From NCBI GenBank assembly GCA_944390355.1, contig CALXPT010000004.1:1077-65076 (forward strand): DNA of 64,000 nt, read 5' to 3'. Shown in pieces: positions 6,754-34,928 of the stretch (positions are counted from its first letter, which is position 1; the number at the start of each line of letters is the position of its first letter). Position numbers and translations under genes: made by a program. Under the pieces are notes generated by a model. That model was not told the origin of the DNA. It made no database searches and saw nothing but the letters and a program-made list of their open reading frames with translations. The DNA comes from an uncultured Alphaproteobacteria bacterium. GTDB lineage: Bacteria; Pseudomonadota; Alphaproteobacteria; RF32; CAG-239.

Positions 6754-7728
6754 TTAGGTGATTTCCGTTACCGCTCTTAAGTTGCCTTCGCGGTTGATTT
6801 GGATTACGCGCAGTCTCCTGTGCATTTCTTGTATTGTCTTATTGCGGTCTGCCGTCGGGTAGGTATGCAAAATTCTATCCATAAATGCTTCATAGGCTGC
6901 TTCCGAACTCTCAGCATGGATGGTCGCTAAGCAGTTGTCGTGGCCCGAACCCATAAGCTCCCATATTGCGCCCGCATTTTGAGTCGATATCTCGCCCCCG
7001 ATAATTGCGTCCGGCGTAAACCTCACAACCAAGTCTATGATTTTGGCATAATCAAACTGGTTGGTTTGGTCGGTTCTGGACATCACCAAATGCACTCTGT
7101 TGGGGTGCGGAACTATCAACTCTCTCGTATCTTCTATTGTTACTATACGTTTATTTATATCAAGTATCTTCAACAAATTGTTCAAAAATGTTGTTTTTCC
7201 CGTCGATGTTGCTCCGCTTATTAAAATATGGTCGCCTCTCTTTATGCTTAACAATAGTCGCTCATAGGGATCACTTGGGTCTTTTATGTTCTTAAGCGGG
7301 TTTATCTTGTGCAGATTTTCTCCTTGCTTTATCCCGTAATCCTGCAAGCCAAATGCCACGTCATCGGCATGAACACGGATGGTTAGTGCTATGCCTCCGG
7401 TTAAGTCATTTTCATCATACATTACATTTTTGCCGCAAACTGCCGAAAAACGGTGGTCTCCGGGGATACTGGCATAAACTACCGGTGTTCCCGAAACCGG
7501 ATCAAACGGTAGTTCATATGTATTGGCTATAATATAAAGCAAGTCCGTCAGATATTCTTTGGAAAGTTTTTCATCTTTATACATTACCCACGGATATGCT
7601 CTCTTGCCACGCAGGCGCAACCATATCGTACCGGCATTATTTATTGCAACCTCTTCTATGTTGTCTTGGTTGTACCAATATGAAAGTGGTCTTAAGACTG
7701 ATTCTAATACCTTGAAACTGTCGGTCAT
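6754..7728 (-). CDS. virB11: VirB11-family T4SS ATPase
   Basis: 324 aa. Walker A ISGATSTGKTTFLNNLL, IVTIEDTRE, GGEISTQNAGA and the His-box CLATIHAES. It is the last gene of the virB-like operon. Confidence 0.9.
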   Translation of the reverse strand: MTDSFKVLESVLRPLSYWYNQDNIEEVAINNAGTIWLRLRGKRAYPWVMYKDEKLSKEYLTDLLYIIANTYELPFDPVSGTPVVYASIPGDHRFSAVCGKNVMYDENDLTGGIALTIRVHADDVAFGLQDYGIKQGENLHKINPLKNIKDPSDPYERLLLSIKRGDHILISGATSTGKTTFLNNLLKILDINKRIVTIEDTRELIVPHPNRVHLVMSRTDQTNQFDYAKIIDLVVRFTPDAIIGGEISTQNAGAIWELMGSGHDNCLATIHAESSEAAYEAFMDRILHTYPTADRNKTIQEMHRRLRVIQINREGNLRAVTEIT

Positions 7729-7737
7729 TTTTTCTCC

Positions 7738-10700
7738 TTAAATGAGCTTGACGACGCTATCGTCTGTTTCCGGTGTTTGATTGCTTGTTCCGCCGCTGTC
7801 TTGGTTTATTCCGGGTTTGGGGCCACTCGTGTTGCTCATTGGAACTGCCGGAACTAAGCCTGTGCTTGAAGGCGGCGGCGGTACGGAACCGTTTATATTA
7901 CTTCTTTTGTTTGATGTTTCCATTTCACTGTCGTCAATAAACTTTTTGCTTTCCGCTTCTTCTCCATTATTTTGATAAAGTGCCTGATTATTACTGCCAC
8001 TTACACCCGTTGTCGGTCGATTGGATACATCTTCCTTAGCGGCTTGTGCCTCAACCTCTTTGTCATCAATTAAAATATTGCGGCGATTAAGTTCGGAATC
8101 TTCATCACTTCTTTCCGGCGTTCTCATCCACAAATCTATATTCGGATAAACTATAATGCGCGTGCCGGCCGGTACATATGTCAAGGGTTGGATGTTGCTT
8201 TTGTCTTGCAAAATTTCATTAAACACTTGATCCATTTGTTCCAAAAAATTGTCGCGGGCATCATTGGCTGCTTGTTGTCTAGGCGTTTCCGTCTCACTGG
8301 AACTATTGCTTTTAGGTGCCATCAGATATGCACTATAACTTGTTAAGGCCGTGGTCATTACCGGCAAAGTATATTTCTTAAACAACTGCTGGTCCAAATA
8401 GCCTAACGCTCCTCCTCGACCCATCGCATCACCCGTAATTCCTTGGAACTTAAATAATACACCGTCCGGACGAACCAAGCGTTCCCATGTTATTTGTACC
8501 CTTGCCGATGTCGTCGTGCTTTCTGTTGAACCGGTCATCGAATTGATTGTTCCCATTATGCGGCTGCCGGCAGGTATTATTACGTTACGTCCTTCTTCCG
8601 CATAGACATTCCTCTCCACTATCGCTGTTACCGGCGTCGGGTTATTGGTGTCTATTGAGCGCGCTATTACCGCAGGTATAGGCTTATCCGAAAATATCAT
8701 TTCGCTTAAATCTACCCGCCATGATGATACGGCTTTGGTTACACCTTCTTCATCCCAGTTCTTTTGATAGCCGTCTACCGATGACGGATTTACTTTGCTT
8801 GCGACATGTCCTACCTGTATATTTTCTCGCCTCAAATTTTGGGCAGCGGCTAATGCTGCGGCTCGTTGCGGGTCATACCTTTCTCCGGGACCGGTGCCTC
8901 CTCCGGGGCCGATATTAATCCTTCTGTCTCCTGAGATATAGGCTTCCGGTGAAATCGGTATCTTTGGTACATACATATTTTTTGGTGTTTGCGTGCCAAT
9001 GTAGTCGCCATTATTATCTATTACATATCCGTCGGAATTTACACGGCCGATGATATTGCCATTCTCATCAACTACCGTTCCGTCTTCCAATATATCTCCC
9101 AAATATGTTCCATCCGGTGATAGGGCGATGTTGATTGAATTAAGCGTTTCTTTCTTATACTCAATGTCGTCGTCTTTCATTTTCTTTTTATATTCGCCCA
9201 CTTCCGGCAAATCTTTTTGCGACTTTTGCGGCTTTATTCGCTCATACCAATTTGTTCCGCTACCACCTAAAATTGATCCGTCCGTTCCATATGCCAAACC
9301 ATTTTCATCTATCGTCCCGATTATATTATTATTTTCGTCAACAACCGTATTCCCTTCTTTGTAGCCGATGACATTGCCGTTTGCGTCGTATATTTTTTCT
9401 CGCCCGTCTTCAATGCTATAATATTGCAGTGAGTTGGCGGTTGCTATCAATTTATTTTCCGAATCAAAAATATTGCCGTCTTTTCCAAGATGTCCAAGTA
9501 CCTCTCCTTGCATTGATACAAAGTCGCCGTTCATCTGTAGTTCGCCCAAGACATTATTACTATCGTCCAATATAAAATAGTCTCTGTTGCCTCGAGCTTG
9601 AACCACGCCTTCGCCGTTTACGAAAAAGCCTTTTAATATTTTACCTATTCTTGTTCCGTCCAAGGCTTTCAGCGAACCGTCAAAACCTATTACGGCTTTC
9701 GTATTGTTATTATTATCATAAACATACAAATCATACAACGCATAACCTATCGGTGTGTCTTTTTCATCTCTTACAAAACCTTTTACATCTGTTTTGCCGA
9801 TTGATTTCCCTTCCGAGGACATAACATTACCATCCGGTGCGACACGCCCCAAAAATTTGTTGCTATTCGAAAAAGCATAACGATAGCGAAATGCTCTTCC
9901 TATACCGACATTCGAATCGTTAATTGCATTGCCGTTGGGCAAAATACGGCCGATTAACTGCTGTTTGTCATTTACGATTGAACCATCTAAAATAATTCGT
10001 CCGATTATTTTATTATTAAAGTTCATAACCGTGCTATATACAAGGCGACTTCCCAATACCTCTTGATTTTGCGAAATCAAAAAGCCTCTTTTATTTACGC
10101 AGCCAAGCAGCTTGTTTTCCGAATCTAAGGCTTTTCCTTCGGCGGTTATTGTTCCCAATACCTTATTGTTGCCGACCACAATACCTTCCGTTAAGTTGTG
10201 CCCTATATAGGTACCGCTGTCGTTTACCGCCTGATTGTTTAAAAGCATTCGCCCTAATTTAACATTGCGGAAATTTTTAACCTCTCCTGAGGTATCTACA
10301 TAACCGACCGTTTGACAATTATCATTAACAACCGTTCGATTATCCACCAAACCGCCTATCGTTGCTCCATTATTGTCTACAACCGTTTTATCGGATGTTC
10401 CTCGCCCGATAACAGCTCGGCTTAAGTCCTTTATTATACCATTTTCATTCATATATCCAAGCAATGCACCGCTTAAATCCAGCGCGATATTGCTCTTAAG
10501 TGCTTGCCCTACCGACGGCGAAAAATTCGTTGAACTTTCCGAATCCGTGCTAACCACCGAATTATCCGGCAATATCTTTGCCAATATTTTGTTCTTTGTA
10601 TCTAAAATGCGATTACCGCCACCTAACAGTCCCAGCGAATTTCCGACGAATGTTAATGCTGCCTTCGGGGATATTATACCGCCTAAGATATTGCCATTTG

Positions 10701-12129
10701 TCCGTACGGCCACTCCTGACTGTGTCATGTGCGCTTCTATCTTCGTACCGTTTTGCGATAGCATTCCATCCGCCGAAATTACTGCCGCATTCAATCCATT
10801 TTGACCAAAGACAAAGCTGTTTTGCAATAAACGCCCGCCCGTTGTTCCGTCTCCGTTATAAACATAACCGTAAGGCGAGGTTTGCTTGGTTTCTTCGCCA
10901 TCAATTATTTTTCCTTGAATTCCGGCTATTCCCAAGGGTTTGTTATTTAAATCATATACCTGATTGTAATTTAGGGTTTTACCCAACATGCGACCGTTAC
11001 TTTCATACACGGTGTCAAAATTCACAAAACCTATCGGGGCTCCTTCCAAAGAAATTGCTTTTCCGCTCCTTGATGATATGCCCTTTATTGTGCCTTTGTA
11101 ATCAAATATCGGCCCTGTGATATTTATATATCCCATAACTTTATTGTCCTTATCTACTCCGGTTCCGCGTGCTCCGATTGAACCGATTATTTCTCTTGAT
11201 AAGGCAATTTTCCCTTCCGGCATTAGACGGCCGACATACTCGCCGTTTTCATCATTTAAAGTCGCTGCCAAATCCAAAGAGTAGCCTATTATCTTGCCCT
11301 CTTTATCCGCTATTTGTCCATCCAGCTGCAAATAGCCGATAACCTTTCCCTTGTTAGTTACCTCACCGTTATAGGTTACAAATCCGATATATTCTCCATT
11401 TATACCAAAGGCATATCCGCTTTTTACGGCTCTGCCGATTACTTCGCTTTTTTCGTTATATGCTATGCCGTTGGCGTGTATAAATCCTATCTCTTCGCCT
11501 TCAAAATTCGTTATCTTTCCTCCGGGGACCATGCTGCCGATAAACTCACCTTTCGGCGAAATTATCATTTTGCTTGAGATTAGTTTTCCTTCCAGAGATA
11601 CTTCTCCTCCCATGCGGCGGTAGGCGTATCCGTCCGGCGTCATAAATCCGGCAACTTCGCCTTCCAAATTCATATAGGCTCCGTCTCCGGTCAAACGCCC
11701 TATGGTTTTTCCTTCATCCGAATAAACCAACCCCGGAGACAAAACGCCGCCGATGACTTTATAATAATCATCTACTACCAATCCCGAAGGCAATGCCTTG
11801 CCGATTATCTTTCCCGATGATGAACGAACCGTGCCGTCATTATTTACTTTACCCAAAAGTTTGTTGTCTACGCCTATGGCTATTCCTTGCGGGACAACCC
11901 CTCCGATTAAGCTTCCTTCAAAATTGACAATCAGACTGTCGGCTGTTACATTGCCGATTAACTCATTTTCATAGCTGACAACTTTTCCATCCGGAATGAC
12001 CTTGCCGATTAGGTCGCCGTTAAAATCTATCGCGGTGATTTCCGCCGCAGAAACCGTTTTTAGGGCAAGTACCGTTCCAAGCATACTCACCAAAAATCTT
12101 TTTAATATTTTTTTGCTTTGGACTTCCAA
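7738..12129 (-). CDS. virB10: Giant VirB10/TrbI homolog: signal peptide, ~930 aa of 17-residue repeats, VirB10 barrel domain, Pro/Ser-rich tail
   Basis: TTG start at 12129 with GGAGGA upstream. The C-terminal segment (about 8125..8720) reads PIPAVIARSID...IIPAGSRIMGT...RVQITWERLVRPDGV...GDAMGRGGALGYLDQQL...YVPAGTRIIVYP, matching TrbI/VirB10. The N-terminal two-thirds is a degenerate repeat (see findings). Confidence 0.85.
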   Translation of the reverse strand: MEVQSKKILKRFLVSMLGTVLALKTVSAAEITAIDFNGDLIGKVIPDGKVVSYENELIGNVTADSLIVNFEGSLIGGVVPQGIAIGVDNKLLGKVNNDGTVRSSSGKIIGKALPSGLVVDDYYKVIGGVLSPGLVYSDEGKTIGRLTGDGAYMNLEGEVAGFMTPDGYAYRRMGGEVSLEGKLISSKMIISPKGEFIGSMVPGGKITNFEGEEIGFIHANGIAYNEKSEVIGRAVKSGYAFGINGEYIGFVTYNGEVTNKGKVIGYLQLDGQIADKEGKIIGYSLDLAATLNDENGEYVGRLMPEGKIALSREIIGSIGARGTGVDKDNKVMGYINITGPIFDYKGTIKGISSRSGKAISLEGAPIGFVNFDTVYESNGRMLGKTLNYNQVYDLNNKPLGIAGIQGKIIDGEETKQTSPYGYVYNGDGTTGGRLLQNSFVFGQNGLNAAVISADGMLSQNGTKIEAHMTQSGVAVRTNGNILGGIISPKAALTFVGNSLGLLGGGNRILDTKNKILAKILPDNSVVSTDSESSTNFSPSVGQALKSNIALDLSGALLGYMNENGIIKDLSRAVIGRGTSDKTVVDNNGATIGGLVDNRTVVNDNCQTVGYVDTSGEVKNFRNVKLGRMLLNNQAVNDSGTYIGHNLTEGIVVGNNKVLGTITAEGKALDSENKLLGCVNKRGFLISQNQEVLGSRLVYSTVMNFNNKIIGRIILDGSIVNDKQQLIGRILPNGNAINDSNVGIGRAFRYRYAFSNSNKFLGRVAPDGNVMSSEGKSIGKTDVKGFVRDEKDTPIGYALYDLYVYDNNNNTKAVIGFDGSLKALDGTRIGKILKGFFVNGEGVVQARGNRDYFILDDSNNVLGELQMNGDFVSMQGEVLGHLGKDGNIFDSENKLIATANSLQYYSIEDGREKIYDANGNVIGYKEGNTVVDENNNIIGTIDENGLAYGTDGSILGGSGTNWYERIKPQKSQKDLPEVGEYKKKMKDDDIEYKKETLNSINIALSPDGTYLGDILEDGTVVDENGNIIGRVNSDGYVIDNNGDYIGTQTPKNMYVPKIPISPEAYISGDRRINIGPGGGTGPGERYDPQRAAALAAAQNLRRENIQVGHVASKVNPSSVDGYQKNWDEEGVTKAVSSWRVDLSEMIFSDKPIPAVIARSIDTNNPTPVTAIVERNVYAEEGRNVIIPAGSRIMGTINSMTGSTESTTTSARVQITWERLVRPDGVLFKFQGITGDAMGRGGALGYLDQQLFKKYTLPVMTTALTSYSAYLMAPKSNSSSETETPRQQAANDARDNFLEQMDQVFNEILQDKSNIQPLTYVPAGTRIIVYPNIDLWMRTPERSDEDSELNRRNILIDDKEVEAQAAKEDVSNRPTTGVSGSNNQALYQNNGEEAESKKFIDDSEMETSNKRSNINGSVPPPPSSTGLVPAVPMSNTSGPKPGINQDSGGTSNQTPETDDSVVKLI

Positions 12130-12132
12130 CCT

Positions 12133-15100
12133 TTAATTCCTCCGGTTCTTTGCGACTTCCTGCAAGGCATAGCCTGCAACTTTTTTATCTAAATCTATAT
12201 AGGAGCCGTTATTTTTGATATAGCCGATGTTGTTTCCTTCTTTACTTAAAACACTGCCATCTGCTGCCAATCGGCCGATGTATTCCCCGCCGTTACTCAA
12301 AATTGTTGCTCCGATTTTGAATACTCTTCCGAGTATATTATTTTTCTCATCAATTGCAAGCTCATTGCTCAGTAAATGCCCAATTACAACTCCGTCTTTG
12401 GATTTTACCGTGCCGTCCAACATCACATAGCCGGCAAACTTATCTTTATTATCTATAACAATATCGCCGTCTATTAACTCACCTGAAAGTTTGCCGTTTT
12501 TATTCACGATGCTGCCATCCGATAAAACTCGGCCAAAATTGCTATTATCTTCATTCACAACCGTGCCGTCCGGCATAACCGCTCCACTTACTTTTCCCTT
12601 AAAATCTATATATGAACTCCGCTTTAAGATATTTAAATCTTTATCCGTGGAGCCTCCGGGCAAAATTGCCGTTATATTATCATTTTTCAAATCCAACACA
12701 TTGCCCAAAGAATTCATCCGCCCTTTGTAGGTTCCCCATATATCTATCATGATATTTTCCGGTATTATTTCGCCGATGATTTCTCCGCTATTATTAATTA
12801 CTTGTTTATCTGACGTGGCTTTACCGATTTTTTTGCCTTCGGGTGAAATGACGCTACCATCCGAGACAACATTTCCCAGAAATGCTCCGTCATATCCTAT
12901 GGCAGGACCTTTGGATATTACACCGCCTTTATATTCGCCTTTATTGTCGATAAAACGTCCCTGTGCGTCAACTCTTCCCAGCGTATCTCCAAAGCGGCTT
13001 AGCACTATACCGTCATACACAACTTTACCCAAATCGTTACCAAAGAAATCAACAACCATTCCGGTCGGAATCGACTTTCCCAAAATACCATTATAAAAAT
13101 TAAAGCCATCTCCTTTTATGTTCCCTACGGATTTGCCTCCGGCATCATATACCAATCCATCCGGAAAAACACGACCGATAAAACTTCCTTGAGAATCGAC
13201 TATTATGGTCTGCGGATTAAGTGCTACTCCCTTTATTTGGTTTGCATCATTTACCAATACATTATTTGAAAGGAGGTGGTATGTACCATCTTTGGTTTTT
13301 AATTCGCCTTTATTATCCAGCGTATTTAAAAACTTGCCATCCATATCATAGCCTTGGATATGTGTTTGAATATGCCCAATATAACCACCGGATTTATTAA
13401 AAACATCTCCGTACGCACCGATACAACCTACCGGCAGACTGGCGGCATTAATTATTAAACCGTCATCTGAAACACGCCCAAGATATTCGCCGTCAAAAGA
13501 AACCGCTATTCCTTCTTTTTTGGCTCCGCCGATTATCTCTCCTTTATCATTTAAAACCGTACCATCCGGATTTATACAGCCGACATATTCACCTTTTTTA
13601 TTCCTTACCGTCCCATCATTTTGAATTTCTCCGATATAGTAACAATTATTGTCAAAGGCAGGGCCGGTACGAACCACCTCTCCTATGTAATTATTACTCT
13701 CATCGACAACTATACCTTCGGGCATAATTCTATACGGCAATTCTTGTGATTGCGCATCGCGTATCTTTCCGTCTTTTTCTAAAAATCCAACATTCCTACA
13801 ACCATAACCCACGACCAATCCGCCTTTAACCATGCGCGCTACTACTTTTGAACCATTTGCGTCTTTTACCAAATCATTTGATAAAACGCGGCCTAAAACA
13901 TCTCCCGTCGGACTAACAACGCTCCCGTCGTTTTTAACCTCTCCCAAAACTTCTCCTTTCGGGGTTATCGGGATTAAGTCTACCGATACCAATGAACCGA
14001 TTTCTCTTTGAATGGTTGAAACTATATTGCCGTCTTTATCTACATATCCGATAACCTTGCCGTTTTTATCAATTACTTTGCCATCCGGCGTTACATAGCC
14101 TATGATATTACCATTTTCATCTACCGCTAATTGAACCATTTCTCCCGCTCGGCCTATCACATTGCCGTCTTTATCAACCAACGTTCCGTCTTCCAGCATT
14201 TTTCCTATAATATTGCCGTTAAAATCAACGACATTGCCGTTTTCATCTATATAGCCGATTACATTGCCGTCTTTGTCATAGGCTAATCTTCGTTGGATGC
14301 TCGGTTTTCCAAGCTTTTCTGACGTTGTAACATTGCCGTTCTCGCCTATGCGCCCTATTATATTGCCATTGGCATCTACAATTGTTCCATCCGGCATAAC
14401 TACACCTATGGGATTGCCATTTTCATCGACTGCCACGCGCCCTGGTTTAGAAATTGTTCCTATGATATTACCATTGAGGTCGACAACCTCGCCATTCTCA
14501 TTTACGCGACCAATTACGTTGCCGTCCATATCAACAACCGTGCCGTCGGCTAAAACTCGTCCTATTATATTGCCGTCTTTGTCATAAACATAACCTGTTT
14601 CTACGGCTTTTCCTATGATTTCTCCTCGGTCATTAACTATACTGCCGTCCGGAAGCTTCTTGCCTATTTTTTTTCCTTCTTTATCATAGACTATGTCATC
14701 TGAGCCTATATATCCTAGGACATTGCCATTTTTATCTATGCCTATTTGACTATTGGATGCAACACCAACTACATTGCCATCCGCATCTACTACTAAGCCT
14801 TGAGAATTAACTCTTCCGATTATATTTCCATTCTTGTCGCGGACGTAGCCTTCTTTGTCAACCCAACCGATTTCTTTGCCATCAGGTCCAACTGCCATAC
14901 TGATTTTTTCATAATCTTTATTCACATCTTTGGCGGTTAAATTTCCCTCGGTTATACCTTCACAAAAATTACAATCTTCTTTTCTGATAGCATTTCCTAT
15001 GACCGGAACTTTTTCTGATTTTGTGTTTGCTTCGCCCAAATTGGTTTCATACCAACTTATGATGAAATTATTTTGCACGTTTCCGGCGATAACCGGCGTC

Positions 15101-17165: not shown

Positions 17166-17184
17166 GACACCTTAATTTTGAATC

Positions 17185-17910: not shown

Positions 17911-17928
17911 CTGAGCTTTCTCTCTCGG

Positions 17929-18117
17929 TTAAATTGTTTCGATATACCAATCCGGCAGATTTTTAGGCAAATCTAATTGCAAACACGAGCACGGAGAAAG
18001 TTTTAGTTCATCTATGCCTTTTCCTACTCCTATCGGTTCCGCTTCGTAATATGAGCCAAATATACCACAGGCTGTCAACAAAGCCGCAGATAAAATGATT
18101 AATATTTTTTTTGACAT
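17929..18117 (-). CDS. virB7: Small lipoprotein in the VirB7 position
   Basis: 62 aa with lipobox LLTAC|G. It sits between the two virB8 paralogs and upstream of virB9. The assignment rests on size, lipobox and position only. Confidence 0.5.
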   Translation of the reverse strand: MSKKILIILSAALLTACGIFGSYYEAEPIGVGKGIDELKLSPCSCLQLDLPKNLPDWYIETI

Positions 18118-18996: not shown

Positions 18997-19005
18997 TCGT
19001 CTTCC

Positions 19006-22000: not shown

Positions 22001-22890
22001 AAACCCATATTGTTTAGTATGTCATCCAAACTCTCTTCTTGAGAAACTTCGTTACCACTCATTAACTGACCAAATGCCATTGTCGATTTATAAAGCGGGG
22101 TTTGGTATTCTGCTAGCTGAATTTGCTCTCGTTGTTGATTTAATGAGCTTTGGCGATATGTGCCATCCGGCATCGGCTCTAACTTCGGGATTTCGTTGCG
22201 CATGGCTTTGGCGGCTATAAACTGTGCCTCCATTGCAACCAACTCCTCGTACATCTGCATCAAATCATCTAATGTTTTGTATACATTGTACTTATTCTTC
22301 CAGCCTGCATTCTCACTATCTCCTACTTCGGCTCCATTTTCTCCACTTAGAATATCGGTGGGCATATTATCAACTTTTTCCTGCAATTCCGAATTGAATT
22401 TCTCCTCCAATTTTATTGCCGCCGTATTTAATTCAATCATCGTGTCTATATAAAACTGGCTTATCTTTTGGTCGCATTTGTTTTGTACGGCCTTATCTCG
22501 TGAAGGATAGGTCATGAACAAATCATATACCGCCTTCTGTATTGCTACAGGATCATCTGCTTTGGCTAATGAGGAATCCTCTATCGTTCTTGTTCCGTTA
22601 AGCGGAGGCTTGTTCTCCCCATTCATGACCCCGATATAATCATTTTTATATTGTTCATATTTCGACTTTAACAACTCTATGTTGCTCTGTATTTTTTTGG
22701 TATATGTCGTAAATCCTGTTTTTAATGTCGTACCAATGTTTACGGTCGTTTGTCCGGCATCCGTTACGGCATCCAATGTCGAGGTGCCTCCGCCGATAAA
22801 ACCGAAAGCTCCGCTTGTTTTGGATACAAGAGATAATACTGCGGCCATGAAAAATATTTTTACAAACCTGTTATTCATTGCCGCCTCCAT
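19006..22890 (-). CDS. 1294-aa secreted, acidic, coiled-coil-rich protein of unknown function inside the T4SS operon
   Basis: Signal peptide (FFMAAVLSLVSKTSGA) and no further hydrophobic segment. It overlaps the stop of the upstream gene. I saw no recognisable catalytic motif. The start may be the second Met at 22878. Confidence 0.7.
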   Translation of the reverse strand: MEAAMNNRFVKIFFMAAVLSLVSKTSGAFGFIGGGTSTLDAVTDAGQTTVNIGTTLKTGFTTYTKKIQSNIELLKSKYEQYKNDYIGVMNGENKPPLNGTRTIEDSSLAKADDPVAIQKAVYDLFMTYPSRDKAVQNKCDQKISQFYIDTMIELNTAAIKLEEKFNSELQEKVDNMPTDILSGENGAEVGDSENAGWKNKYNVYKTLDDLMQMYEELVAMEAQFIAAKAMRNEIPKLEPMPDGTYRQSSLNQQREQIQLAEYQTPLYKSTMAFGQLMSGNEVSQEESLDDILNNMGLTEKQEEYYQPTESYENRNISDSDAEEGVPETDASKYKFRYDAASQSNVSFMDMPSSDEGSPYSENQEAIEDLAAIDPTYHKILAAIQVHNMIQGLPTKRDIFNKYHQYEKLHEKLVERVKTSDQCVMNFIGRYYKEPEKTWYGDVYIGDQITDYDLREGLSRWAIDSYETAKSEKVDGVDKENFAEMEINPDIMTTESYVNTSEQEEEVKSQVEEKNFSGHKTKTKEENTNESEREISLLAWNIGSEATEMLAKDQYLEEPQWGEVINKFPVWTDQKNFYGQYIDGKYDNMKKVVERMDLRAIGVQIAMYLNDKSNASKLVKKIINNQLSSMYASLKNNPILEESTQEDDFTIIAGEKKEAIEELDKNFQKILAQMAEGRKVTVTELDLEQETKNNLSSDLNSGQIEGRTEDIIDETVDIDGTKEDIKTQNEKIAEKTTELDNIDAKILEYQKEYIRKEQKIEQQYAQALGNIARPLSKKLEGTLNAGIGGEITQEILNLAMPRFVSLISEANGITTDIKNYAIEEIEKARTDIYAIGDEIYLTSGGEKVLERHKELIDSLRGISLNQIAKQKDNVKQIIDWSEGASIVNQIFTSALIGQICEDNKCTEADEDYFVSMNGKFRDFVGPKAAPETTTAPAREVVYLDYIDYNNIPKLADGSISKKGLQEYGHKIPQVWQYMLKNPAYVEKDIDLESALSVDKEDLYFLRGGNLPCHYNGTYGIDADVDKKMYTIFQNNKDYGLLACTGLTITQARVKDLELEKNDTQVPSLSSGLQSGDKSELGTFMTYEDNKFMYRPLAKESYDLATRIYVEQDEEYEDNIKDSLLLKGEYTKNQIGDFLEFMDMEQEAKQKLDEMENKIQETKEELIEELSNAGFSVSEDLDLTDEKEYTSIVEKLDELKATWIKSAEEDLSKIKTQGNVVVEDRLAILRNLLLALQLDNKELLTISEATQADSSFEEDLKEEETNRAAANEYQKQADEEFEKQMNTLPAPYCATY

Positions 22891-24073
22891 CCGTTGTCTC
22901 GCTGCATATGTATTTATCTAATGTAAATGTTGCTATATCCGAATCTACCGCGCTATCTATCTTTTCAAATTTAGCCATTTCGGCTGAAGTTTTTAACTTT
23001 AAGTCCATAGTCTTCAGTTTTATTAATTTTGCAAGCTCTTTAATTATCATGATTGTCGTTTGCGTATCCGTTGCATTTGCTCCGATTGAACCATCGGTTG
23101 TGTCGGTTCGATTTGCCAACTTTTGGGTTAATATTTTGGCATCGTTCAAATCTCTTTTAATTACGGCTGCCTGTATAAACGTATCTACTGCCGTATTTGC
23201 CGCCGTATTCGTCCGATTGGCTCGGCGCGATGTTATGCTTTCTTGATCTACCGGTGAGCCGTCTGCTACAAAGTTCTTTTCCGTATTTTGTTTTAATTCT
23301 TCTTCCGGATTAAATGATTTTACATCTGAGAGTAATTTATCCGTTACTTTCTGCGTCCACTCTTGTGCTTGCTTATCCGCTGCTGCTTTCATGCTTGTCA
23401 ACGCAGCGTTTACATCCGTCAGCTTGGCAACATCTTCGCTTGTAACCTCTTTTTCCGTTGCCAGCATTAATGTTTGATACTCTTTTATTTTGGTATTGTT
23501 TTTTTCTAACTGTTTGGTTAATTCTTCCTTCTTTTCCGGATGTTCCTTTATTTCATTTTGTATTTCTTGATTGTTTTTTTGCAGTGCTTCTATCTTTCCT
23601 TGATACTCTTTATTGCTGGCTTCTCTTTTGGTGTTTATTTGGTCTAAAAGCTCCTGTTGTTGCTGCTCCAAATCTGTCATTTTTTGCACTTTTTCTATCT
23701 TCTCGGTTAAGTTTGTGGCAAAGCCATCTTCTTCTGCTTCCTGCTCCTTTTGAGCTTGTTCCTCTAATTTTTCTTCTGCCAAATCTATGCTTGCTCCCAG
23801 AGGGTCTTCTTTAATCTGTTCGGCTGTTGTCTTGGCATCATTTATGATTGTTTGCATTTGTTTGGCGTCTTCTACATACGAACCTATTGTTTTGATAACT
23901 GCCGAATTGCCGACATTATCCATTGTCTTTTTGGCATTATCAAAAAAATTGCTTACCGCGGTTACAACCGTTTTGGGCGAATTTCCTACATCTATTTTCA
24001 ATTTTGCTTCTGAAATATTTGCGGATATCATCCACATCATGAGCCAGGAAGTCAAAATAATTACTTTTTTCAT
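22871..24073 (-). CDS. 400-aa secreted coiled-coil protein (T4SS operon)
   Basis: Signal peptide MKKVIILTSWLMMWMISANISEA and long E/K/Q-rich helices. Its start overlaps the upstream gene and its stop overlaps the downstream gene. Confidence 0.65.
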   Translation of the reverse strand: MKKVIILTSWLMMWMISANISEAKLKIDVGNSPKTVVTAVSNFFDNAKKTMDNVGNSAVIKTIGSYVEDAKQMQTIINDAKTTAEQIKEDPLGASIDLAEEKLEEQAQKEQEAEEDGFATNLTEKIEKVQKMTDLEQQQQELLDQINTKREASNKEYQGKIEALQKNNQEIQNEIKEHPEKKEELTKQLEKNNTKIKEYQTLMLATEKEVTSEDVAKLTDVNAALTSMKAAADKQAQEWTQKVTDKLLSDVKSFNPEEELKQNTEKNFVADGSPVDQESITSRRANRTNTAANTAVDTFIQAAVIKRDLNDAKILTQKLANRTDTTDGSIGANATDTQTTIMIIKELAKLIKLKTMDLKLKTSAEMAKFEKIDSAVDSDIATFTLDKYICSETTDGGGNE

Positions 24074-24960
24074 TGTCCTGTCTCCTCCGGCAAAATACTT
24101 TCTGTTTGCGAATTACTTGTTTTTTCCGAATCTCCCAATATCGGATCTTTGCTGCCTGTTTGGCTACTTTCATCTGTTGATGATTTATCTATAAACTCTT
24201 TACTGCCTCTCATTGCTTCATATTCTAAAATATCTGCCTCTAATTCTAAAATTCGGGTTAATCTTGTTATTGCTCGTGTCGATACATCTGCCGTATTTTG
24301 AATTAAAATACGTTGATTGCTTGTGTCTATCTCCGGCTGCGCAGCGGACTTTTCTTCCGCAATTGCCACTCGCATAACCATCGCTTTTGCATACATGGTT
24401 GATATATTTTGGCGCATGATATCATAAATCTTTTCCATTTGTTTGGCATAGGCAGTCGGATTTTCGGTTGTTATATTTTTCGGTACTGTGTTTTCTTCAA
24501 CATCTTTTTTAGATTGGGTCAAATTCTTTACATTTGACATGAAACTCGGAATTTGGGTCTTTAATGTTTCCATCGGATTGGTTGATAGACCATTTAAATC
24601 ATTGGCTACAGATGCTGCCGCATTGACTTGTTTATCACTTAATGCATTTTCTCCGGTTACTAATGTTGAGCCTTGGTTAACTGCGCTCGTTCCCGCCGCA
24701 ACTGCTCCTGAAATGTCGCCATTTTTTATTGCCGTACCAACATTCTTTACGGAGCTGAGTGTTCCTTTGATTCCGGCATATGTGCTTTGATAAAATCTTT
24801 TGGCCTTTTGATACTCTTCCAATAAATTTATGGCAAAGCGTTCAATTGTATCCATTTTCTTCAGCACTGACTGTATTACTTCTTTGTCGGCATACGCTGA
24901 GGGTATGTTCATTAGCATGAAACATATTATCATTCCGATTATTGCCCCCAGCTTCTTCAT
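24070..24960 (-). CDS. 296-aa secreted helical protein (T4SS operon, possible VirB5-like minor pilus component)
   Basis: Signal peptide ending SAYA|DK and helical composition. It starts 4 nt after the stop of the TrbJ-like gene. Confidence 0.6.
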   Translation of the reverse strand: MKKLGAIIGMIICFMLMNIPSAYADKEVIQSVLKKMDTIERFAINLLEEYQKAKRFYQSTYAGIKGTLSSVKNVGTAIKNGDISGAVAAGTSAVNQGSTLVTGENALSDKQVNAAASVANDLNGLSTNPMETLKTQIPSFMSNVKNLTQSKKDVEENTVPKNITTENPTAYAKQMEKIYDIMRQNISTMYAKAMVMRVAIAEEKSAAQPEIDTSNQRILIQNTADVSTRAITRLTRILELEADILEYEAMRGSKEFIDKSSTDESSQTGSKDPILGDSEKTSNSQTESILPEETGQ

Positions 24961-24963
24961 CTT

Positions 24964-26661
24964 TTACGCTCCTTTTTCCGTTGTTTTTTCGTCGGTTCCG
25001 GAGCTTGTGTCCGCTGTGCTCGAATTTACATCTTTAAGTTGGTATTGTGTGGCTTCATTTAGTCCTTCATAAAGTAATCTGCTGGCATATATTTTATTTA
25101 CATTTGCCATTAGTGCCTGAAGTAATTTTACATTGCTTGATAAAACTTTTATATCATCTCTCGTATCTGTTTGAGATTTGTTTTCATCTGTTTTTTTAGG
25201 TCCTAGTACATCGGTTTTATAGTTGCTGGCGACATTTTTATAATATGCGGCTTCTGCCGTCAAGGCTATTGCGGCATCATACAACACGCTATATACAAAA
25301 TTTTTACCCTTTTCGGCTGTCGTCATGTTCGTTTCCGACTGATAGGCTATCAGCTTCTCCAAACAATCTCTTATTTCACTTTCGCTTGCTTTGTTTATAT
25401 TCAAATTGCAATACTGAGCCAATTCATCGGATATTATATATTCGTCCGTTGCGGCATTTTTTCCGGTCGGCGCATCCGTTAAAGGCGTTGTTTCATCCGT
25501 TGTCTCTTCTTTTGCAAACTTTAATGTCTCCGTTCTTGAATACGAGGCCGTAAAAATCTCTTTTTTCGAATTTAGTTCGCTTCTCCTGTCAAACACTTCA
25601 TTTTTATCAATTGTTTGAATTTTCCTAAATCCTCTAGAGGTGTTTTCTTTGTTCGGTTCGGTTATTGTTTCTGGCAAATCGCTCGTTTCTTCTGTTGGAT
25701 TATCCGATGCCTCTTCTGTCGGCAATCCATCGTTTGATGATGTTTCTTCAAATTCCCCGTCCGAATTTGTTGATAAACCTTCTTCCTGCTCTTTGTATTT
25801 TTTAAGCTCTGCTTTTAATTTAGCTATTTCTTTTTTTGCTGCATTTAAATCTTCCGGCGAAACATATTCTTGTGTGTTATTTTGTCCCATTAATTCTGCC
25901 AACTGCGCTTTCAGCATTTCTATTTCTGATAATGCAGCTTGCAATTCTTGTTCTTCTTCCGATGTTTTTTCATTTGCCAAATTCTGAGAAGAATTTGTAC
26001 TTTGCGGGGTATTAATTTCTATCTGCGTCGGTACGCTATTTTGCGTTATTTCTTCCGTTTTACTCTCATTTCTTGAAGTTTCTGTCGGCTGATAATTACT
26101 CTCGCCTCCGTAATTATATTGGTTTGTTCCGGCGGAATTACCTGTTTTATTCTCCGTATTCTTGCTGTCGGTATTATTTTCCAACGAATCAAGCGTTTCT
26201 GTTGCCGCTGTATATGTTTCTTGGGCTTGGCTATAGGCACTCTGCGCTTCGCTTATACCTTTTTCAAGTTCTTCTTTGTGCTTTTGTAAACGTTCTTTGT
26301 TTTCTTCGGCTGCTTGTTTGGCACTCTCATATTTTTCTTTATATTCTTCATACGCCTCTTTGGCTTTTTCAAAATTTTCTTTTTCTTTTTTGGCCTTTTC
26401 AATTGCTTCGGCAGCTTCGCTATTCTCCAAATCTGATAATGATGACTTGGCCGTGCCTATCGCCGATTTGATTTCTCCCGCCTCTTTGGTGGCTTCGGTT
26501 ACTATTTTGGACTGTTTGACCAACTCTATATTGGTCATTATTCCTTCGGCTATTGCTGACGCATCTATCGTCGGAATCGGGGCAAATGCATGGCTTGGCG
26601 ACGCCTCAATAAAAAACGCGCAACTTAACATTAAGCTAAGATATTTTTTGGATTTTTTCAT
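24964..26661 (-). CDS. virB5: Expanded VirB5/TrbJ-like secreted protein (565 aa)
   Basis: After the signal peptide (SPSHAFA) the mature N-terminus PIPTIDASAIAEGIMTNIELVKQSK resembles the TrbJ/VirB5 start (IPV-x-D...IM..IE). It sits directly after virB4. A long acidic low-complexity insert follows. Confidence 0.55.
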   Translation of the reverse strand: MKKSKKYLSLMLSCAFFIEASPSHAFAPIPTIDASAIAEGIMTNIELVKQSKIVTEATKEAGEIKSAIGTAKSSLSDLENSEAAEAIEKAKKEKENFEKAKEAYEEYKEKYESAKQAAEENKERLQKHKEELEKGISEAQSAYSQAQETYTAATETLDSLENNTDSKNTENKTGNSAGTNQYNYGGESNYQPTETSRNESKTEEITQNSVPTQIEINTPQSTNSSQNLANEKTSEEEQELQAALSEIEMLKAQLAELMGQNNTQEYVSPEDLNAAKKEIAKLKAELKKYKEQEEGLSTNSDGEFEETSSNDGLPTEEASDNPTEETSDLPETITEPNKENTSRGFRKIQTIDKNEVFDRRSELNSKKEIFTASYSRTETLKFAKEETTDETTPLTDAPTGKNAATDEYIISDELAQYCNLNINKASESEIRDCLEKLIAYQSETNMTTAEKGKNFVYSVLYDAAIALTAEAAYYKNVASNYKTDVLGPKKTDENKSQTDTRDDIKVLSSNVKLLQALMANVNKIYASRLLYEGLNEATQYQLKDVNSSTADTSSGTDEKTTEKGA

Positions 26662-26756
26662 CTTATCCTCCGCCGCCCAATAATCTTTTTATCTGCCTTT
26701 TCGGCCTTATTCTTTTGATTATAGCATATTATTTGTTACAGTTGTGTGAATTTATA

Positions 26757-29189
26757 TCATGCAATATTTAAATATTTGGTTACGAAATTATCCTCACCAT
26801 ATTCTTTTATCAATTCTTCTACCAAAAGCACATTCTTACGACCCGAATTGTACAATTTCAGATATGGGCCTAAGCCGCTTAAATCTACATCCAAAATTAC
26901 CGACTCTCCCGTTGCCGGTCTTGACAGCAAAATCGCATACGGAAAATCACGATAACTCTTACCGAAAATAAAATCCAGTTCCCTTTGGGTTAAGTTCCAA
27001 TTTACATAATCTTCCGGCATGGCTTGCGGGTTGCGGAAAAAAATTATCGTTTGGCACTGTCCGCGAATCACCTCGCCTACGCCTAATTTATCTATTATAT
27101 TGGGCTGTTGAAAGGCACAAAGATATGCTTGGCGTTTTTTACGACCTTCTTGCAAACCTATCGTAAAATAGTCCCTAAACATCGGGTGCTTTAACATCGG
27201 TGCCGTTTCATCTATCATGATTAATGACGGAACACCCGTTTCTCCCGTCTCGATTTGAATACGGTGCATGATATAGCTGATAACGGCCGGTGCCAAGCTC
27301 TCATCTTCAAATATATGGGTAAAGTCAAAGGCAAAAAAGCGTTTTTGATGTAAATCCAAGCTATCATTCTGCGAATTAAAAATATTGCCATACTGTTCCG
27401 GATTAACCCAACGGAAAAGCTCTCGACGCATATTGCCCGTCGGCGAAAAGCAACTCTTGTAAAGATTGCTCATCATCCGCTCTTCGGGTTTCAGATAGTC
27501 AAAGGCTGTGGTTACCGCTCGGCTTATTTCTTTTTCAGATAGGGCATCGTCCACCAAAGTTATTGATTTCATCCAGCGTTGCAGAAATGCTCTGTTTACG
27601 GCATTATCCTTACAATCAAACGGGTTTAGAGAAACATTCTTTTCATCTCCGTCAAAGCCGACATATGCTCCACCGATTGCTCTCGTAAAAATTTCCGCAC
27701 CGCGATAACGATCAAAGAAAAATACTTTTAAGTCTGCATGACGCATCGCCTGACCTGCCAAAAATGTCAGCAAAGTTGTTTTTCCTTGTCCGGTCGGACC
27801 GATAATACAACAGTGGGCTACGGCTGATTCCTCACTCGAAACATGGAATTGAAAGCGGTATGCCGAACCGGTTGCCGTCTTAAAAACCGTAATTGCTCCA
27901 GGACCCCAGTCGCTCTTTGTAAATCCTTCCGACGGTTTGTCAAAGCATACCGCGGCGGCTACTACTCGTGACAAATAACGGTACGTTCTGGGGTATGTTT
28001 CGTAGGTCGGAAACTGATTGAAAAACGAAGCTTGTGTTACCCAGCCTTCTCTTACCGGCGTTACACTAAACAAGCGACATATACGTTGGACTTCTCCCTC
28101 GCCAAAATCAATCTCTTCTTCACTTTCGCCTTTTAGAATTATGGTCATTGCATATTCGGTTAACGCTTGGTGATCTCCGGAGCTATCTTCAATCGCCGAT
28201 AATGCTTCGCTATATTGTTCAACTACGTCGGCCGAAAAGCTGGTTACCTGAGCCATGCGCTGCTGTTGCAGGAGCAATGCCCGCGCATATGGCTTAAATA
28301 ACGGCTTGATGTTATGGATGAGTATCATTTCGCAATCGATTGAGAGCAATGTCGAAATCATAGACTCATCCATATAATCTCCCGATGAGCGTATTCCCAT
28401 GCTGATTTCGTAAACCGATTTATCTCCGGAGAAAAAGTGTATTACTCCTCGTTCTCCCGTAAAATGAATATGGTCTGCCGTTAACAACTCATTTAGTTGA
28501 TAGCCCTCTGCTCCTCTGACTTTGGGTTCAGGCTGTGTTATCGGGCTGCAGATTTTGGAAAAAACATATAACGGGCTGTCTTTCGCGGCACTATCTGCCG
28601 TTTCATATAAAGTTTGTATGCCATAATCATTTAATGTTGCCAACAAAGCCTGCGAGGCATAGTTCAAATCTTTTAGTGCATCCGGACGATCTAATACCGA
28701 TAATATTATATAATGTGTATTGGTATATACTCTATCCAGATTTTGTTCCCAAATATGAGATATCTGCTCTAACAAGGGATTGTTGAAGTTATTTTGGTTT
28801 TCTTCCAAAGATATTCGTTCCCGCATGGTGATTACTCGGCAGATTATCTGCATATCCGACATGTTATCTATCCATGACTTCCGTGCCTCAAACATGGATT
28901 CACTTTTTTCTTCCGTGGCAAAGGTCAAATCAACCCCCGTTACACGAAATACTCGCGCATAAGCTCCATTATAGCAACGTATGGTTATGCCGTCAGACAT
29001 AAGCTTATTAAACGGCAAAAAGTCGGCTACCCTTGATTCGTAGGGTTGCGGCAATATCTTTTGCCCAAGCTTTGTCGCCCAGAATCCGGCAAAAGCCGCC
29101 GCCGATATTATTCCGATAAAGGCTACGAAGACTTCTAAAGTGCTTAAACCTTGCACAAAAACACTAAAAAAACTAAAATCAGGGCTCAA
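26757..29189 (-). CDS. virB4: VirB4-family T4SS ATPase
   Basis: 810 aa. Walker A IIGPTGQGKTTLLTFL and Walker B SLIMIDETAPML. The N-terminal membrane-associated segment overlaps the virB3 stop. Confidence 0.95.
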   Translation of the reverse strand: MSPDFSFFSVFVQGLSTLEVFVAFIGIISAAAFAGFWATKLGQKILPQPYESRVADFLPFNKLMSDGITIRCYNGAYARVFRVTGVDLTFATEEKSESMFEARKSWIDNMSDMQIICRVITMRERISLEENQNNFNNPLLEQISHIWEQNLDRVYTNTHYIILSVLDRPDALKDLNYASQALLATLNDYGIQTLYETADSAAKDSPLYVFSKICSPITQPEPKVRGAEGYQLNELLTADHIHFTGERGVIHFFSGDKSVYEISMGIRSSGDYMDESMISTLLSIDCEMILIHNIKPLFKPYARALLLQQQRMAQVTSFSADVVEQYSEALSAIEDSSGDHQALTEYAMTIILKGESEEEIDFGEGEVQRICRLFSVTPVREGWVTQASFFNQFPTYETYPRTYRYLSRVVAAAVCFDKPSEGFTKSDWGPGAITVFKTATGSAYRFQFHVSSEESAVAHCCIIGPTGQGKTTLLTFLAGQAMRHADLKVFFFDRYRGAEIFTRAIGGAYVGFDGDEKNVSLNPFDCKDNAVNRAFLQRWMKSITLVDDALSEKEISRAVTTAFDYLKPEERMMSNLYKSCFSPTGNMRRELFRWVNPEQYGNIFNSQNDSLDLHQKRFFAFDFTHIFEDESLAPAVISYIMHRIQIETGETGVPSLIMIDETAPMLKHPMFRDYFTIGLQEGRKKRQAYLCAFQQPNIIDKLGVGEVIRGQCQTIIFFRNPQAMPEDYVNWNLTQRELDFIFGKSYRDFPYAILLSRPATGESVILDVDLSGLGPYLKLYNSGRKNVLLVEELIKEYGEDNFVTKYLNIA

Positions 29190-29469
29190 ATTTACTCCCC
29201 TTTACTTTATAGAGATTTTGCGTTACTCGTCTTGTTTCACCATAAGATTGCATCATTGTTGAAATATGCGGCTCTTTGGCGCTATAAATTGCGATTGCCG
29301 TATGAACGCAGATTATTGAAATTAAAAATATTAACGGGTTTAAGTCAAATACTCCGATTGCCATAAACATTAAGGGCATTTGCACGAATAAATTTATCAT
29401 AGCCGGCATTGCCGACGCCCACAAAATTCTGGGCGGGTTTGCAACTGCTTTTAATATTCCTTCCCGCAT
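29179..29469 (-). CDS. virB3: VirB3-family small inner-membrane protein
   Basis: I moved the start to the Met at 29469 (GGGGAGG upstream). About 96 aa with two hydrophobic helices (PAMINLFVQMPLMFMAIGVF, LIFLISIICVHTAIAIY). Its position is directly upstream of virB4. Confidence 0.75.
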   Translation of the reverse strand: MREGILKAVANPPRILWASAMPAMINLFVQMPLMFMAIGVFDLNPLIFLISIICVHTAIAIYSAKEPHISTMMQSYGETRRVTQNLYKVKGSKFEP

Positions 29470-29600
29470 TTTGCCTCCCCTTGTTATTTTCAACATAGCC
29501 AAACAAAAACTTTGGCGCAATCATAAAGTCATTTATGCACCTTATTTATTTTAGCTTTATTTTATGAAAAACTTATTAATTATTTGTGTAGATTAAATTT

Positions 29601-29987
29601 TTAGTTTGCATTTGCCAGAGAATCTTGTATGGCAATCGAACTGGCGGCGTCATCTCCGCCGATAAATTTCAACAATCCTGCCGTTCCGGCTATTATCATC
29701 AAGCCTATCATTATGGCCGAGAGCCATTTCCAGTTAACCGAGCCGAAAAAACTCCCTACGGCAATACCTACAATTCCGAATCCAGTAACGGCAAATATAA
29801 TTCCTTTTAGCCCCTCAAAAATTTCGGAACCGCTTTGGGTTAAATTCTCAAATAAGGCATATGCATTTGTTGTTGATACCATTAAGCACAACGCAACAAC
29901 TAATACATATTTATATGCTCTTTTTATTTTTATATTTTTAAAAAGGGAAAGAATACCAGAAAGTTCTCTTAGGTTGACCTTTTTCAT
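29601..29987 (-). CDS. virB2: VirB2/TrbC-type T-pilin paralog 2
   Basis: I moved the start to the ATG at 29987 (GGGGA RBS). Long leader ending TNAYA|L, then two hydrophobic helices. It shares FG-x-VG-x-A...NWKWLSA with paralog 1. Confidence 0.75.
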   Translation of the reverse strand: MKKVNLRELSGILSLFKNIKIKRAYKYVLVVALCLMVSTTNAYALFENLTQSGSEIFEGLKGIIFAVTGFGIVGIAVGSFFGSVNWKWLSAIMIGLMIIAGTAGLLKFIGGDDAASSIAIQDSLANAN

Positions 29988-30024
29988 ATTCTTTCCCCTT
30001 GTTTTTATTTCATTCGATTTGGAA

Positions 30025-30375
30025 TTACAAATTACCGAATGATGTTCCCAACTTATCCGTTGCAGCACTTGAACCGGTTGCATATTCTACAATTGCACTT
30101 GCAGCGGCCAAAATTGCCAAACCGGTTGCCAGAGCTGCCAGCCACTTAAAGTCAACTTTCTTGAAAATTGCAGCCCATGCCAAACCGACCAAACCGAAGC
30201 CGCCTAAAATATACACAATCGTCTTAACCGATCTAAACACATTACCGACTTTGGTGGCTGCCGTATCCATCACCGTATCACCACTTGCCGCAAAAGCATT
30301 TCCCGATATTAAACTCAAAAATGCAAATATCAGCGTCGACAATGTCCATACATTATTTTTTAAGAATTGCATCAT
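30025..30375 (-). CDS. virB2: VirB2/TrbC-type T-pilin paralog 1
   Basis: I moved the start to the ATG at 30375 (AGGAG RBS). Leader ending GNAFA|A, two hydrophobic helices (TIVYILGGFGLVGLAWAAIF, LAALATGLAILAAASAIV). It is the first gene of the operon. Confidence 0.75.
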   Translation of the reverse strand: MMQFLKNNVWTLSTLIFAFLSLISGNAFAASGDTVMDTAATKVGNVFRSVKTIVYILGGFGLVGLAWAAIFKKVDFKWLAALATGLAILAAASAIVEYATGSSAATDKLGTSFGNL

Positions 30376-34908: not shown

Positions 34909-34928
34909 TTTTCGTAAGGATATTTACC

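Follow-up and report, generated by a model that had tools for sequence, protein, structure and literature searches.

Background

Type IV secretion systems (T4SSs) that lack a coupling protein are known, Bordetella Ptl and Brucella VirB among them. The Trw system of Bartonella is derived from conjugation, has no coupling protein at its locus and carries multiplied pilin and VirB5-type genes, with its VirB6 (TrwI) in the operon. The rvh system of the Rickettsiales has no VirB5, and multiplied, enlarged VirB6 genes directly follow its VirB4. In the Cag system of Helicobacter pylori, the VirB10 homologue CagY has a very large repeat region. Here we describe a VirB-type T4SS operon from an uncultured alphaproteobacterium known from metagenome assemblies only. 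It was read at positions 6754-30396 on the minus strand of a 64-kb stretch of contig CALXPT010000004.1 (the window, by which we mean the whole stretch analyzed), and it contains neither VirB6 nor VirB1. On balance, the locus is probably the main operon of a functional, chromosomally fixed and domesticated P-type (VirB-like) T4SS whose VirB6 lies outside the ~95 kb of DNA examined, namely the 64-kb window and ~31 kb of flanks from same-species contigs (~21 kb on the left, L007 and L052, and 10 kb on the right, L010-L012).

Gene content of the T4SS operon

Fifteen tightly packed genes, with intergenic gaps of at most 129 bp, run from position 30396 down to 6754 on the minus strand. In gene order, with lengths in amino acids (aa) and family scores, they are:

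30025..30396, minus strand: VirB2/TrbC pilin paralogue 1, a 123-aa open reading frame (ORF) given as 115 aa by gene callers (Pfam TrbC 2.5e-9)
29601..30083, minus strand: VirB2/TrbC pilin paralogue 2 (Pfam TrbC 5.8e-7)
29179..29520, minus strand: VirB3-like protein, 96 aa from its likely start (NCBIfam VirB3 0.0045, Pfam VirB3 0.046, both weak)
26757..29189, minus strand: VirB4 ATPase, 810 aa (Pfam CagE_TrbE_VirB, PF03135, 3.3e-12; TIGR00929 3.9e-111)
24964..26661, minus strand: S565, secreted VirB5-like protein with a long insert of coiled-coil, low-complexity sequence
24070..24960, minus strand: S296, secreted helical protein with a signal peptide and a positional orthologue in both L013 and L014
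22871..24073, minus strand: S400, secreted coiled-coil protein with weakly VirB5-like ends
19006..22890, minus strand: S1294, large secreted protein, modeled by AlphaFold2 (AF2) as mainly long helices plus a small beta-rich domain
18247..18996, minus strand: VirB8 paralogue a (Pfam VirB8 4.8e-14)
17929..18117, minus strand: VirB7-like lipoprotein, 62 aa, with the lipobox LLTAC and a conserved ...LKxSPCxC... motif
17185..17910, minus strand: VirB8 paralogue b (Pfam VirB8 3.1e-23)
15561..17165, minus strand: VirB9, 534 aa (Pfam CagX 3.7e-11)
12133..15564, minus strand: R1143, inner-membrane-anchored beta-flower protein (Pfam Bflower_2 4.6e-62, 10 stretches)
7738..12129, minus strand: giant VirB10, 1463 aa, with a signal peptide, ~1100 residues of beta-flower repeats and a C-terminal TrbI/VirB10 domain
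6754..7728, minus strand: VirB11 ATPase (NCBIfam TIGR02788 VirB11 4e-41; Pfam T2SSE 1.9e-21)

The VirB4 ATPase, the VirB7/9/10 outer-membrane core and the VirB2, VirB3, VirB8 and VirB11 components identify the system as type IVA (MPF-T). Pilin paralogue 1 has a signal and two transmembrane (TM) segments, and it shows 54-55% identity to the orthologues at the corresponding position in L013 and L014, two lineages whose VirB4 is 80% identical to that of the window. The likely start of pilin paralogue 2 is near position 29987, giving ~128 aa, and it was called at 126-128 aa on six same-species contigs. The VirB3 assignment, weak by family score, is supported by topology (two TM segments) and conserved position, as the gene overlaps the VirB4 start and a homologue precedes VirB4 in every relative. 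VirB4 has a single TM helix at its N-terminus. The two VirB8 paralogues of the operon are 33% identical, and the top PDB sequence matches of VirB8b were Bartonella VirB8 structures. The conserved VirB7 motif is common to a small gene preceding VirB8 in five related loci (L016, L018, L019, L021 and L041).

The initial annotation of this DNA had recognized a VirB-type T4SS with virB2 (two copies), B3, B4, a VirB5/TrbJ-like gene, B8 (two copies), B7, B9, B10 and B11; the components that it listed are indeed present, on the minus strand. Its VirB5/TrbJ-like gene was the 296-aa one; by hhalign the clearest candidate is the 565-aa gene. The 1143-aa repeat protein between VirB9 and VirB10 was missing from its gene list. 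It had also placed four secreted genes in the virB5/virB6 slot, which was right and can now be sharpened, as at least two of them (S565 and S400) appear to be VirB5 relatives by hhalign.

Absence of VirB6, VirB1, coupling protein and relaxase from the locus

VirB6 is central to current T4SS models. In R388 it makes up the base of the stalk in the inner membrane and is the site proposed for pilin recruitment and assembly (PMC9259494). No ORF of the window matched Pfam TrbL, SLT, T4SS-DNA_transf/TraG or the relaxase families. When hydropathy was scanned in six frames, no polytopic minus-strand ORF was found in the operon except the pilins; plus-strand ORFs with many hydrophobic segments (e.g. 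21103-21750) were rejected as antisense artefacts of Lys/Glu-rich genes. A VirB6 hidden Markov model (HMM) was made from 13 canonical proteins, and it scored held-out controls at ~1e-71 and Rickettsiales VirB6 at 3e-4. Its best E value in the six frames of the window was 2 or worse, indicating that the operon holds no frameshifted virB6 remnant. HMMs for the coupling protein (T4CP) and the MobA/MobL relaxase of the related clade described below gave no match in the window, and the T4CP model gave none in the ~95 kb.

As a control, the hydropathy scan was applied to 15 canonical alphaproteobacterial loci and a Paracaedimonas plasmid, and in each it found a gene with 4-7 TM segments directly after VirB4/VirB5. 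Thirteen of these control genes were aligned (12 of the 15 canonical ones and that of Paracaedimonas), and all 13 matched Pfam TrbL. A Rickettsiales control locus (L026) had a 953-aa gene with seven TM segments after VirB4.

The VirB6/TrbL and VirD4 components of a type IVA system were therefore not found at the locus (~95 kb). A relaxase beside the mating-pair-formation genes, which marks a conjugative element, was not found either; a pilus operon occupies the position that the relaxase has in relatives. These results agree with the earlier claims that VirB6, VirB1, T4CP and relaxase are absent from the 64 kb and, apart from the pilins, also with the claim that no polytopic membrane protein is encoded in the operon. 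Two checks had been named at that stage. The search for a frameshifted virB6 found none, and the search for an adjacent VirB6, T4CP or relaxase found none in the ~31 kb of flanks, which showed no SLT gene either.

The flanks hold housekeeping genes, with the one exception of a third, orphan VirB8 paralogue (L007:17847-18623, minus strand), which lies outside the window, ~17.5 kb past VirB11. Its identity is 34% with VirB8b and 27% with VirB8a. A copy so far from the operon indicates that the T4SS genes of this genome are scattered. Convergent with it is a gene for a 277-aa polytopic protein (L007:17008-17841), which follows dnaE in the same orientation. This protein was tried as a VirB6 analogue and rejected (no Pfam match; hhalign 0.08%).

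Related systems with VirB6 encoded in trans

In a full-library search, the nearest VirB4 clusters had 52%, 41%, 39% and lower identity, all from uncultured Alphaproteobacteria. A neighbour-joining tree of VirB4 united the loci without an in-operon VirB6 in one clade (171 of 200 bootstraps), apart from the loci with an in-operon VirB6; members of the clade never carry VirB6 inside the operon. The window locus shares the features of this clade: its VirB4 groups there, a VirB5-like protein lies between VirB4 and VirB7, and its VirB7 has the PCxC motif. The chromosomal relatives (L015, L016, L022, L023 and L042) have only B3-B4 or B3-B4-B7-B8-B9, amid housekeeping genes.

Five further members are conjugative modules, namely L017, L041 and plasmids (L018, L019, L021) of Erythrobacter aureus YH-07, Sphingosinicella sp. 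BN140058 and Microvirga sp. VF16. All five have the order MobA/MobL relaxase, B2, B3, B4, B5, X, B7, B8, B9, B10, B11, and a canonical VirB6 is missing from each. In four of them, a gene for a DnaB_C-like ATPase separates the relaxase from B2. VirD4 immediately follows B11 in four of five; in the metagenome-assembled genome of L017 the VirD4 locus tag is ~7 genes past VirB11. X is a secreted protein of 393-555 aa that is paralogous to VirB5 over its first ~220 residues (hhalign probability 97%, E 3.7e-11). A 228-aa slot protein of Microvirga with three TM segments was considered as a mini-VirB6, which hhalign (0.4%) did not support. Many VirD4 proteins of the conjugative relatives (P0409, P0414, P0427 and others) are ~1050-1200 aa long and contain intein/homing-endonuclease domains (PF05203, PF05204, PF14528).

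As VirB6 was missing within 10-15 kb of these five modules, a clade altogether without VirB6 was considered. This was refuted when the Sphingosinicella plasmid p1 (347 kb, one VirB4) was read whole. The canonical VirB6 HMM had no match on p1. The plasmid does encode, at a distance of ~18 kb from the operon and adjacent to the gene of an SLT transglycosylase, a 441-aa protein with a signal and six TM segments. The match of this protein to Pfam TrbL (4.2e-5) covers profile positions 3-191 of 215, and by hhalign it matched the VirB6 alignment at E 1.6e-4. The Erythrobacter aureus plasmid has a homologue (45.7% identity) ~19 kb past VirD4, which PGAP annotates as a T4SS protein. On Microvirga pMVF16-3, a 626-aa homologue is encoded ~17 kb past VirD4 (L056:14622-16502, plasmid positions 703621-705501; clade HMM E 1.8e-10). 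A diverged TrbL/VirB6 gene thus lies 17-19 kb from the virB operon, at matching positions, in all three complete plasmids, and the clade as a whole cannot be called VirB6-less. Judged by these plasmids, the trait of the clade is relocation and divergence of VirB6 together with VirB1, VirB5 paralogues taking the vacated slot, and not loss of VirB6. A search of JGI metagenomes for VirB6 returned one further lone plasmid-type copy (L053) and two Paracaedimonas-type operons. No paper on natural T4SSs without VirB6 or on these plasmid modules was found in a literature search.

The N-terminal ~200 aa of the Microvirga VirB6-like protein resemble, by eye, a lysozyme/VirB1-type glycosidase, and the protein may be a VirB1-VirB6 fusion. 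Plasmid p1 (NZ_CP035502.1, L043-L050) is unusual in that it encodes its own DnaE, DnaN, DnaB, primase, ligase, RNR, RecA, ClpX and sigma factors. It also carries ~ten DNA methyltransferases, hundreds of small hypothetical genes and a T2SSE/T2SSF pair.

Secreted proteins in the VirB5/VirB6 slot

All four proteins encoded between VirB4 and the first VirB8 (565, 296, 400 and 1294 aa) carry a signal-like segment at the N-terminus. No further hydrophobic stretch above 1.3 on the Kyte-Doolittle scale follows the signal in any of the four, and none had a family match in Pfam or NCBIfam. The signal peptide and first helix of S565 (IPTIDASAIAEG...) aligned by hhalign to VirB5 from the related plasmids (probability 90%, E 1.7e-6), while S565 had no match to Pfam PF07996; it is 25% identical to its positional orthologues. 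The N-terminus of S400 aligned to that of S565 (probability 82%), and its C-terminal 100 residues aligned weakly to the VirB5 C-terminus (probability 32%, E 4.7e-4). From these alignments S400 is probably a second VirB5 paralogue. Its single-sequence AF2 model was all-helical, with low confidence (pLDDT 51).

For S296, searches of Pfam, NCBIfam and PDB sequences gave no match, and profile comparison to VirB5 and X was also blank. Thirteen homologue clusters of S1294 were found (39-100% identity), none with Pfam domains. Its AF2 model had moderate confidence (mean pLDDT 65), and a Foldseek search of PDB with it gave no match at E <=0.001, only generic coiled coils.

Conservation and selection

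All 15 operon genes are intact. The exact VirB4 protein is present on ~100 metagenome contigs, and it shares at least 79% identity with >120 protein clusters. Between strains, VirB4 showed 14-15 synonymous and no non-synonymous differences. Within the species, dN/dS of the four secreted genes was 0.09-0.5, with S1294 at 0.09-0.15. Judged by these substitution patterns, the genes are under purifying selection and the operon is functional.

The layout in L013 and L014 is as in the window (pilus operon, pilins, B3, B4, four secreted genes, B8, B7, B8, B9), plus extra pilin-like genes. Identity to the window proteins was 80% for VirB4, 71-81% for VirB7, 60-67% for VirB8, 43-55% for the pilins and 24-40% for the secreted proteins. 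The pattern is the one expected if a conserved motor bears exposed parts that evolve fast, the slot proteins and pilins being the likely ones. Both lineages encode, between pilin 2 and VirB3, an extra protein with a VirB2 core and long N- and C-terminal extensions (L013:7373-9580, 735 aa; L014:7311-8513, 400 aa), which is not present in the window. These extra genes were tried as VirB6 and rejected on account of their pilin core.

Beta-flower repeat proteins

R1143, encoded between VirB9 and VirB10, has 1143 aa and one N-terminal TM segment, and its repeats also fill the N-terminal ~1100 residues of VirB10. VirB10 matched Pfam Bflower_2 at 5e-58 and TrbI at 7.2e-35 over residues 1145-1334. The repeat families in 7738-15564 (minus strand) are Pfam PF21785 and PF21784 together with DUF3659. 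We considered whether R1143 and VirB10 were one gene broken by a stop codon. At the junction, a TAA stop, a GGAGG Shine-Dalgarno site and a TTG start were found, and a good signal peptide comes after the start, indicating two genes. The pair looks like a VirB10 split into anchor and core parts around a huge repeat region.

Chromosomal neighbourhood

The T4SS operon lies head-to-head with a complete type IVb pilus operon, an arrangement kept in L013 and L014:

30397..30659, no strand assigned: divergent intergenic region between the T4SS and type IVb pilus operons, with promoter-like sites on both strands
30660..43690, plus strand: type IVb pilus operon (Pfam TcpQ, Secretin, PAP_PilO, T2SSE twice, T2SSF, PilS/Bundlin twice)

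The pilus operon encodes a 640-aa protein without assignment, TcpQ, a secretin, a PilO-like protein, a 495-aa protein without assignment, a T2SSE ATPase, a T2SSF platform protein, three PilS/bundlin-type pilins and a second T2SSE. Beyond VirB11 lies a convergent DEAD-box gene followed by housekeeping genes. The housekeeping genes in the remainder of the window include GcpE, RodZ and PtsP. The guanine-cytosine (GC) content of the operon equals that of the flanks. In the chromosomal relative L016, whose VirB4 is 41% identical, the T4SS genes adjoin RodZ-HisS-RF1, as they do in the window.

No integrase or tRNA borders the operon; the only ones in the window are 28 kb off, beside a low-GC island. 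There, at 58364-64000, a tyrosine integrase and an HTH/pentapeptide gene lie by tRNA-Arg(CCT) (60454-60530) in DNA of 28-34% GC. This small island is distinct from the T4SS and has no relation to it. Positions 46612-49512 (plus strand) encode a VWA-domain protein, a PP2C phosphatase and a Ser/Thr kinase with C-terminal TM segments. Comparison of L052 with L007 showed a HEPN_AbiU2 gene and a 156-aa gene (L052:3381-4493) inserted between RF-1 and dnaE in one contig but not the other, so that strains of the species differ here.

Evaluation of alternative explanations

We consider it rather likely that the VirB6 of this lineage is encoded elsewhere in the genome, since relocation is a clade trait in the plasmid relatives and T4SS genes are scattered in this genome. 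The initial annotation had left two possibilities, VirB6 encoded elsewhere or a machine that works differently; the three of three plasmids and the third VirB8 favour the former and make the latter less likely. A domesticated conjugation machine is suggested because the relaxase and VirD4 positions hold the pilus operon and housekeeping genes, synteny is shared with a distant chromosomal relative and the GC content is flank-like; the lack of any T4CP or relaxase signal in the ~95 kb points the same way. Several points weigh against a domesticated system with a distant VirB6. The 441-aa protein of p1 scores 23.8 bits, under the Pfam TrbL gathering threshold of 25.9. A trans VirB6 was seen only in plasmid relatives, whose VirB4 is 35-38% identical, and in no chromosomal member of the clade. 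The clade VirB6 HMMs gave no match in the window, its flanks, L013 or L014. The coupling protein could lie elsewhere in the genome, and the functional role, adhesion or secretion, is inferred by analogy. The same blank scans, over ~95 kb and two loci with 80% VirB4 identity, would be expected of a machine truly without VirB6, in which the four fast-evolving secreted proteins, at least two of them VirB5-derived, replace the stalk base and pilin-assembly platform, perhaps helped by the three VirB8 copies and the VirB4 TM helix. The slot holds four proteins against one or two in the conjugative relatives, its position is kept across the lineage, and VirB8 is present in three copies. As VirB5 of R388 sits directly on VirB6 in the stalk (PMC9259494), a VirB5-derived substitute is geometrically conceivable. 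However, no slot protein has a hydrophobic segment past its signal, so these proteins cannot supply the membrane-embedded pilin recruitment helix of VirB6; all three complete replicons with a related T4SS keep a trans VirB6 homologue, and most of the genome lies outside the ~95 kb examined. We therefore regard a machine truly without VirB6 as unlikely.

An integrated conjugative element whose relaxase, coupling protein, VirB6 and VirB1 lie outside the window appears very doubtful. It would fit the closest relatives with complete modules, which are conjugative (MobA/MobL plus VirD4), and some conjugative elements typically have a type IVb pilus operon next to their T4SS; p1, too, has a T2SSE/T2SSF pair. 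In those relatives, however, the relaxase lies immediately upstream of VirB2 and VirD4 directly follows VirB11 (four of five), where the window has the pilus operon and the DEAD-box gene. The flank-like GC content, the RodZ-HisS-RF1 neighbourhood common with the relative of 41% VirB4 identity and the operon borders free of integrase and tRNA also speak against such an element. As weak evidence, the top 120 matches of the clade T4CP profile were all from environmental conjugative relatives and none from this lineage. It is extremely improbable that the locus is a decaying, non-functional conjugation remnant that has lost VirB6, VirB1, VirD4 and relaxase, the four canonical functions missing from it. 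Against decay, 15 of 15 genes are intact and tightly packed, with a Shine-Dalgarno site checked at the R1143/VirB10 junction; VirB4 polymorphism is synonymous only and dN/dS of the secreted genes is well under 1. Operon content and order are kept at 80% VirB4 identity, and surface proteins only 24-40% identical are nevertheless unbroken.

In the domesticated system that we favour, VirB4 and VirB11 would power assembly of a VirB2 pilus or channel through the VirB7/9/10 outer-membrane core, which would be enlarged by the beta-flower repeats. S565 and S400, perhaps with S296 and S1294, could form part of the stalk or tip, act as adhesin subunits or be Sec-dependent cargo. The outcome would be Trw-like adhesion, or Ptl/Brucella-like secretion without a coupling protein, in concert with the adjacent type IVb pilus. 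If secretion of the latter kind applies, the Sec-dependent slot proteins might be cargo and not structure.

Significance

A sizeable clade of alphaproteobacterial T4SSs has virB6 and virB1 out of the virB operon, with a VirB6 diverged to the edge of Pfam detection, and tools that detect or annotate T4SSs by their operons will count such systems as incomplete or non-mobilisable. MOB-suite typing in PLSDB lists the relatives' plasmids as 'non-mobilizable' or 'mobilizable', and types p1 only as 'mobilizable' despite its full T4SS and trans VirB6. The cultured plasmid-bearing strains allow tests of the uncoupled VirB6 and of the extra VirB5 paralogue. The window system is a candidate host- or cell-contact organelle, by analogy with known systems, of an uncultured lineage common in metagenome assemblies. 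The finding would be far more important if the complete genome lacks VirB6; a VirB6-less machine, if true, would be the first natural Gram-negative T4SS without the presumed pilin-recruiting subunit.

Comparison with known systems

Compared with canonical type IVA/MPF-T systems (Agrobacterium VirB, R388 Trw, pKM101 Tra), the locus has homologues of VirB2-4 and VirB7-B11 and a VirB5-like gene in canonical order. It differs in having no in-operon VirB6 or VirB1, the slot being filled by VirB5 paralogues and secreted proteins without an assigned family. VirB8 is duplicated in the operon with a third copy elsewhere, no VirD4 or relaxase is nearby, and VirB10 carries ~1100 repeat residues and is preceded by a separate repeat protein. 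The closest systems found are the plasmid modules of Sphingosinicella, E. aureus and Microvirga, which share the VirB4 clade, the VirB7 motif, the N-terminal TM helix of VirB4 and VirB5 paralogues in the slot. In contrast to the window locus, they have a MobA/MobL relaxase, a DnaB_C-like ATPase, VirD4, one VirB8, a normal-sized VirB10, one extra VirB5 paralogue (X) and a trans VirB6.

Bartonella Trw resembles the locus in its conjugation-type origin, the lack of a coupling protein at the locus and the multiplied pilin and VirB5-type genes; here, however, VirB6 is outside the operon and the multiplied genes are highly divergent, not tandem near-copies. As in H. pylori Cag, VirB10 is enlarged by repeats, which here are beta-flower units (PF21785, PF21784), while no Cag-specific component is present. 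The hallmark of rvh, no VirB5 and several enlarged VirB6 genes after VirB4, was not seen at the window locus, which shows the reverse: VirB5-like genes are multiplied after VirB4 and no VirB6 was seen at the locus. PDB sequence matches of VirB8 were to Bartonella proteins and to no Rickettsia structures. The locus nevertheless resembles the Rickettsiales rvh system (PMC2653234) in its chromosomal location and vertical inheritance, in the scattering and duplication of components and in having several VirB8 genes around VirB7.

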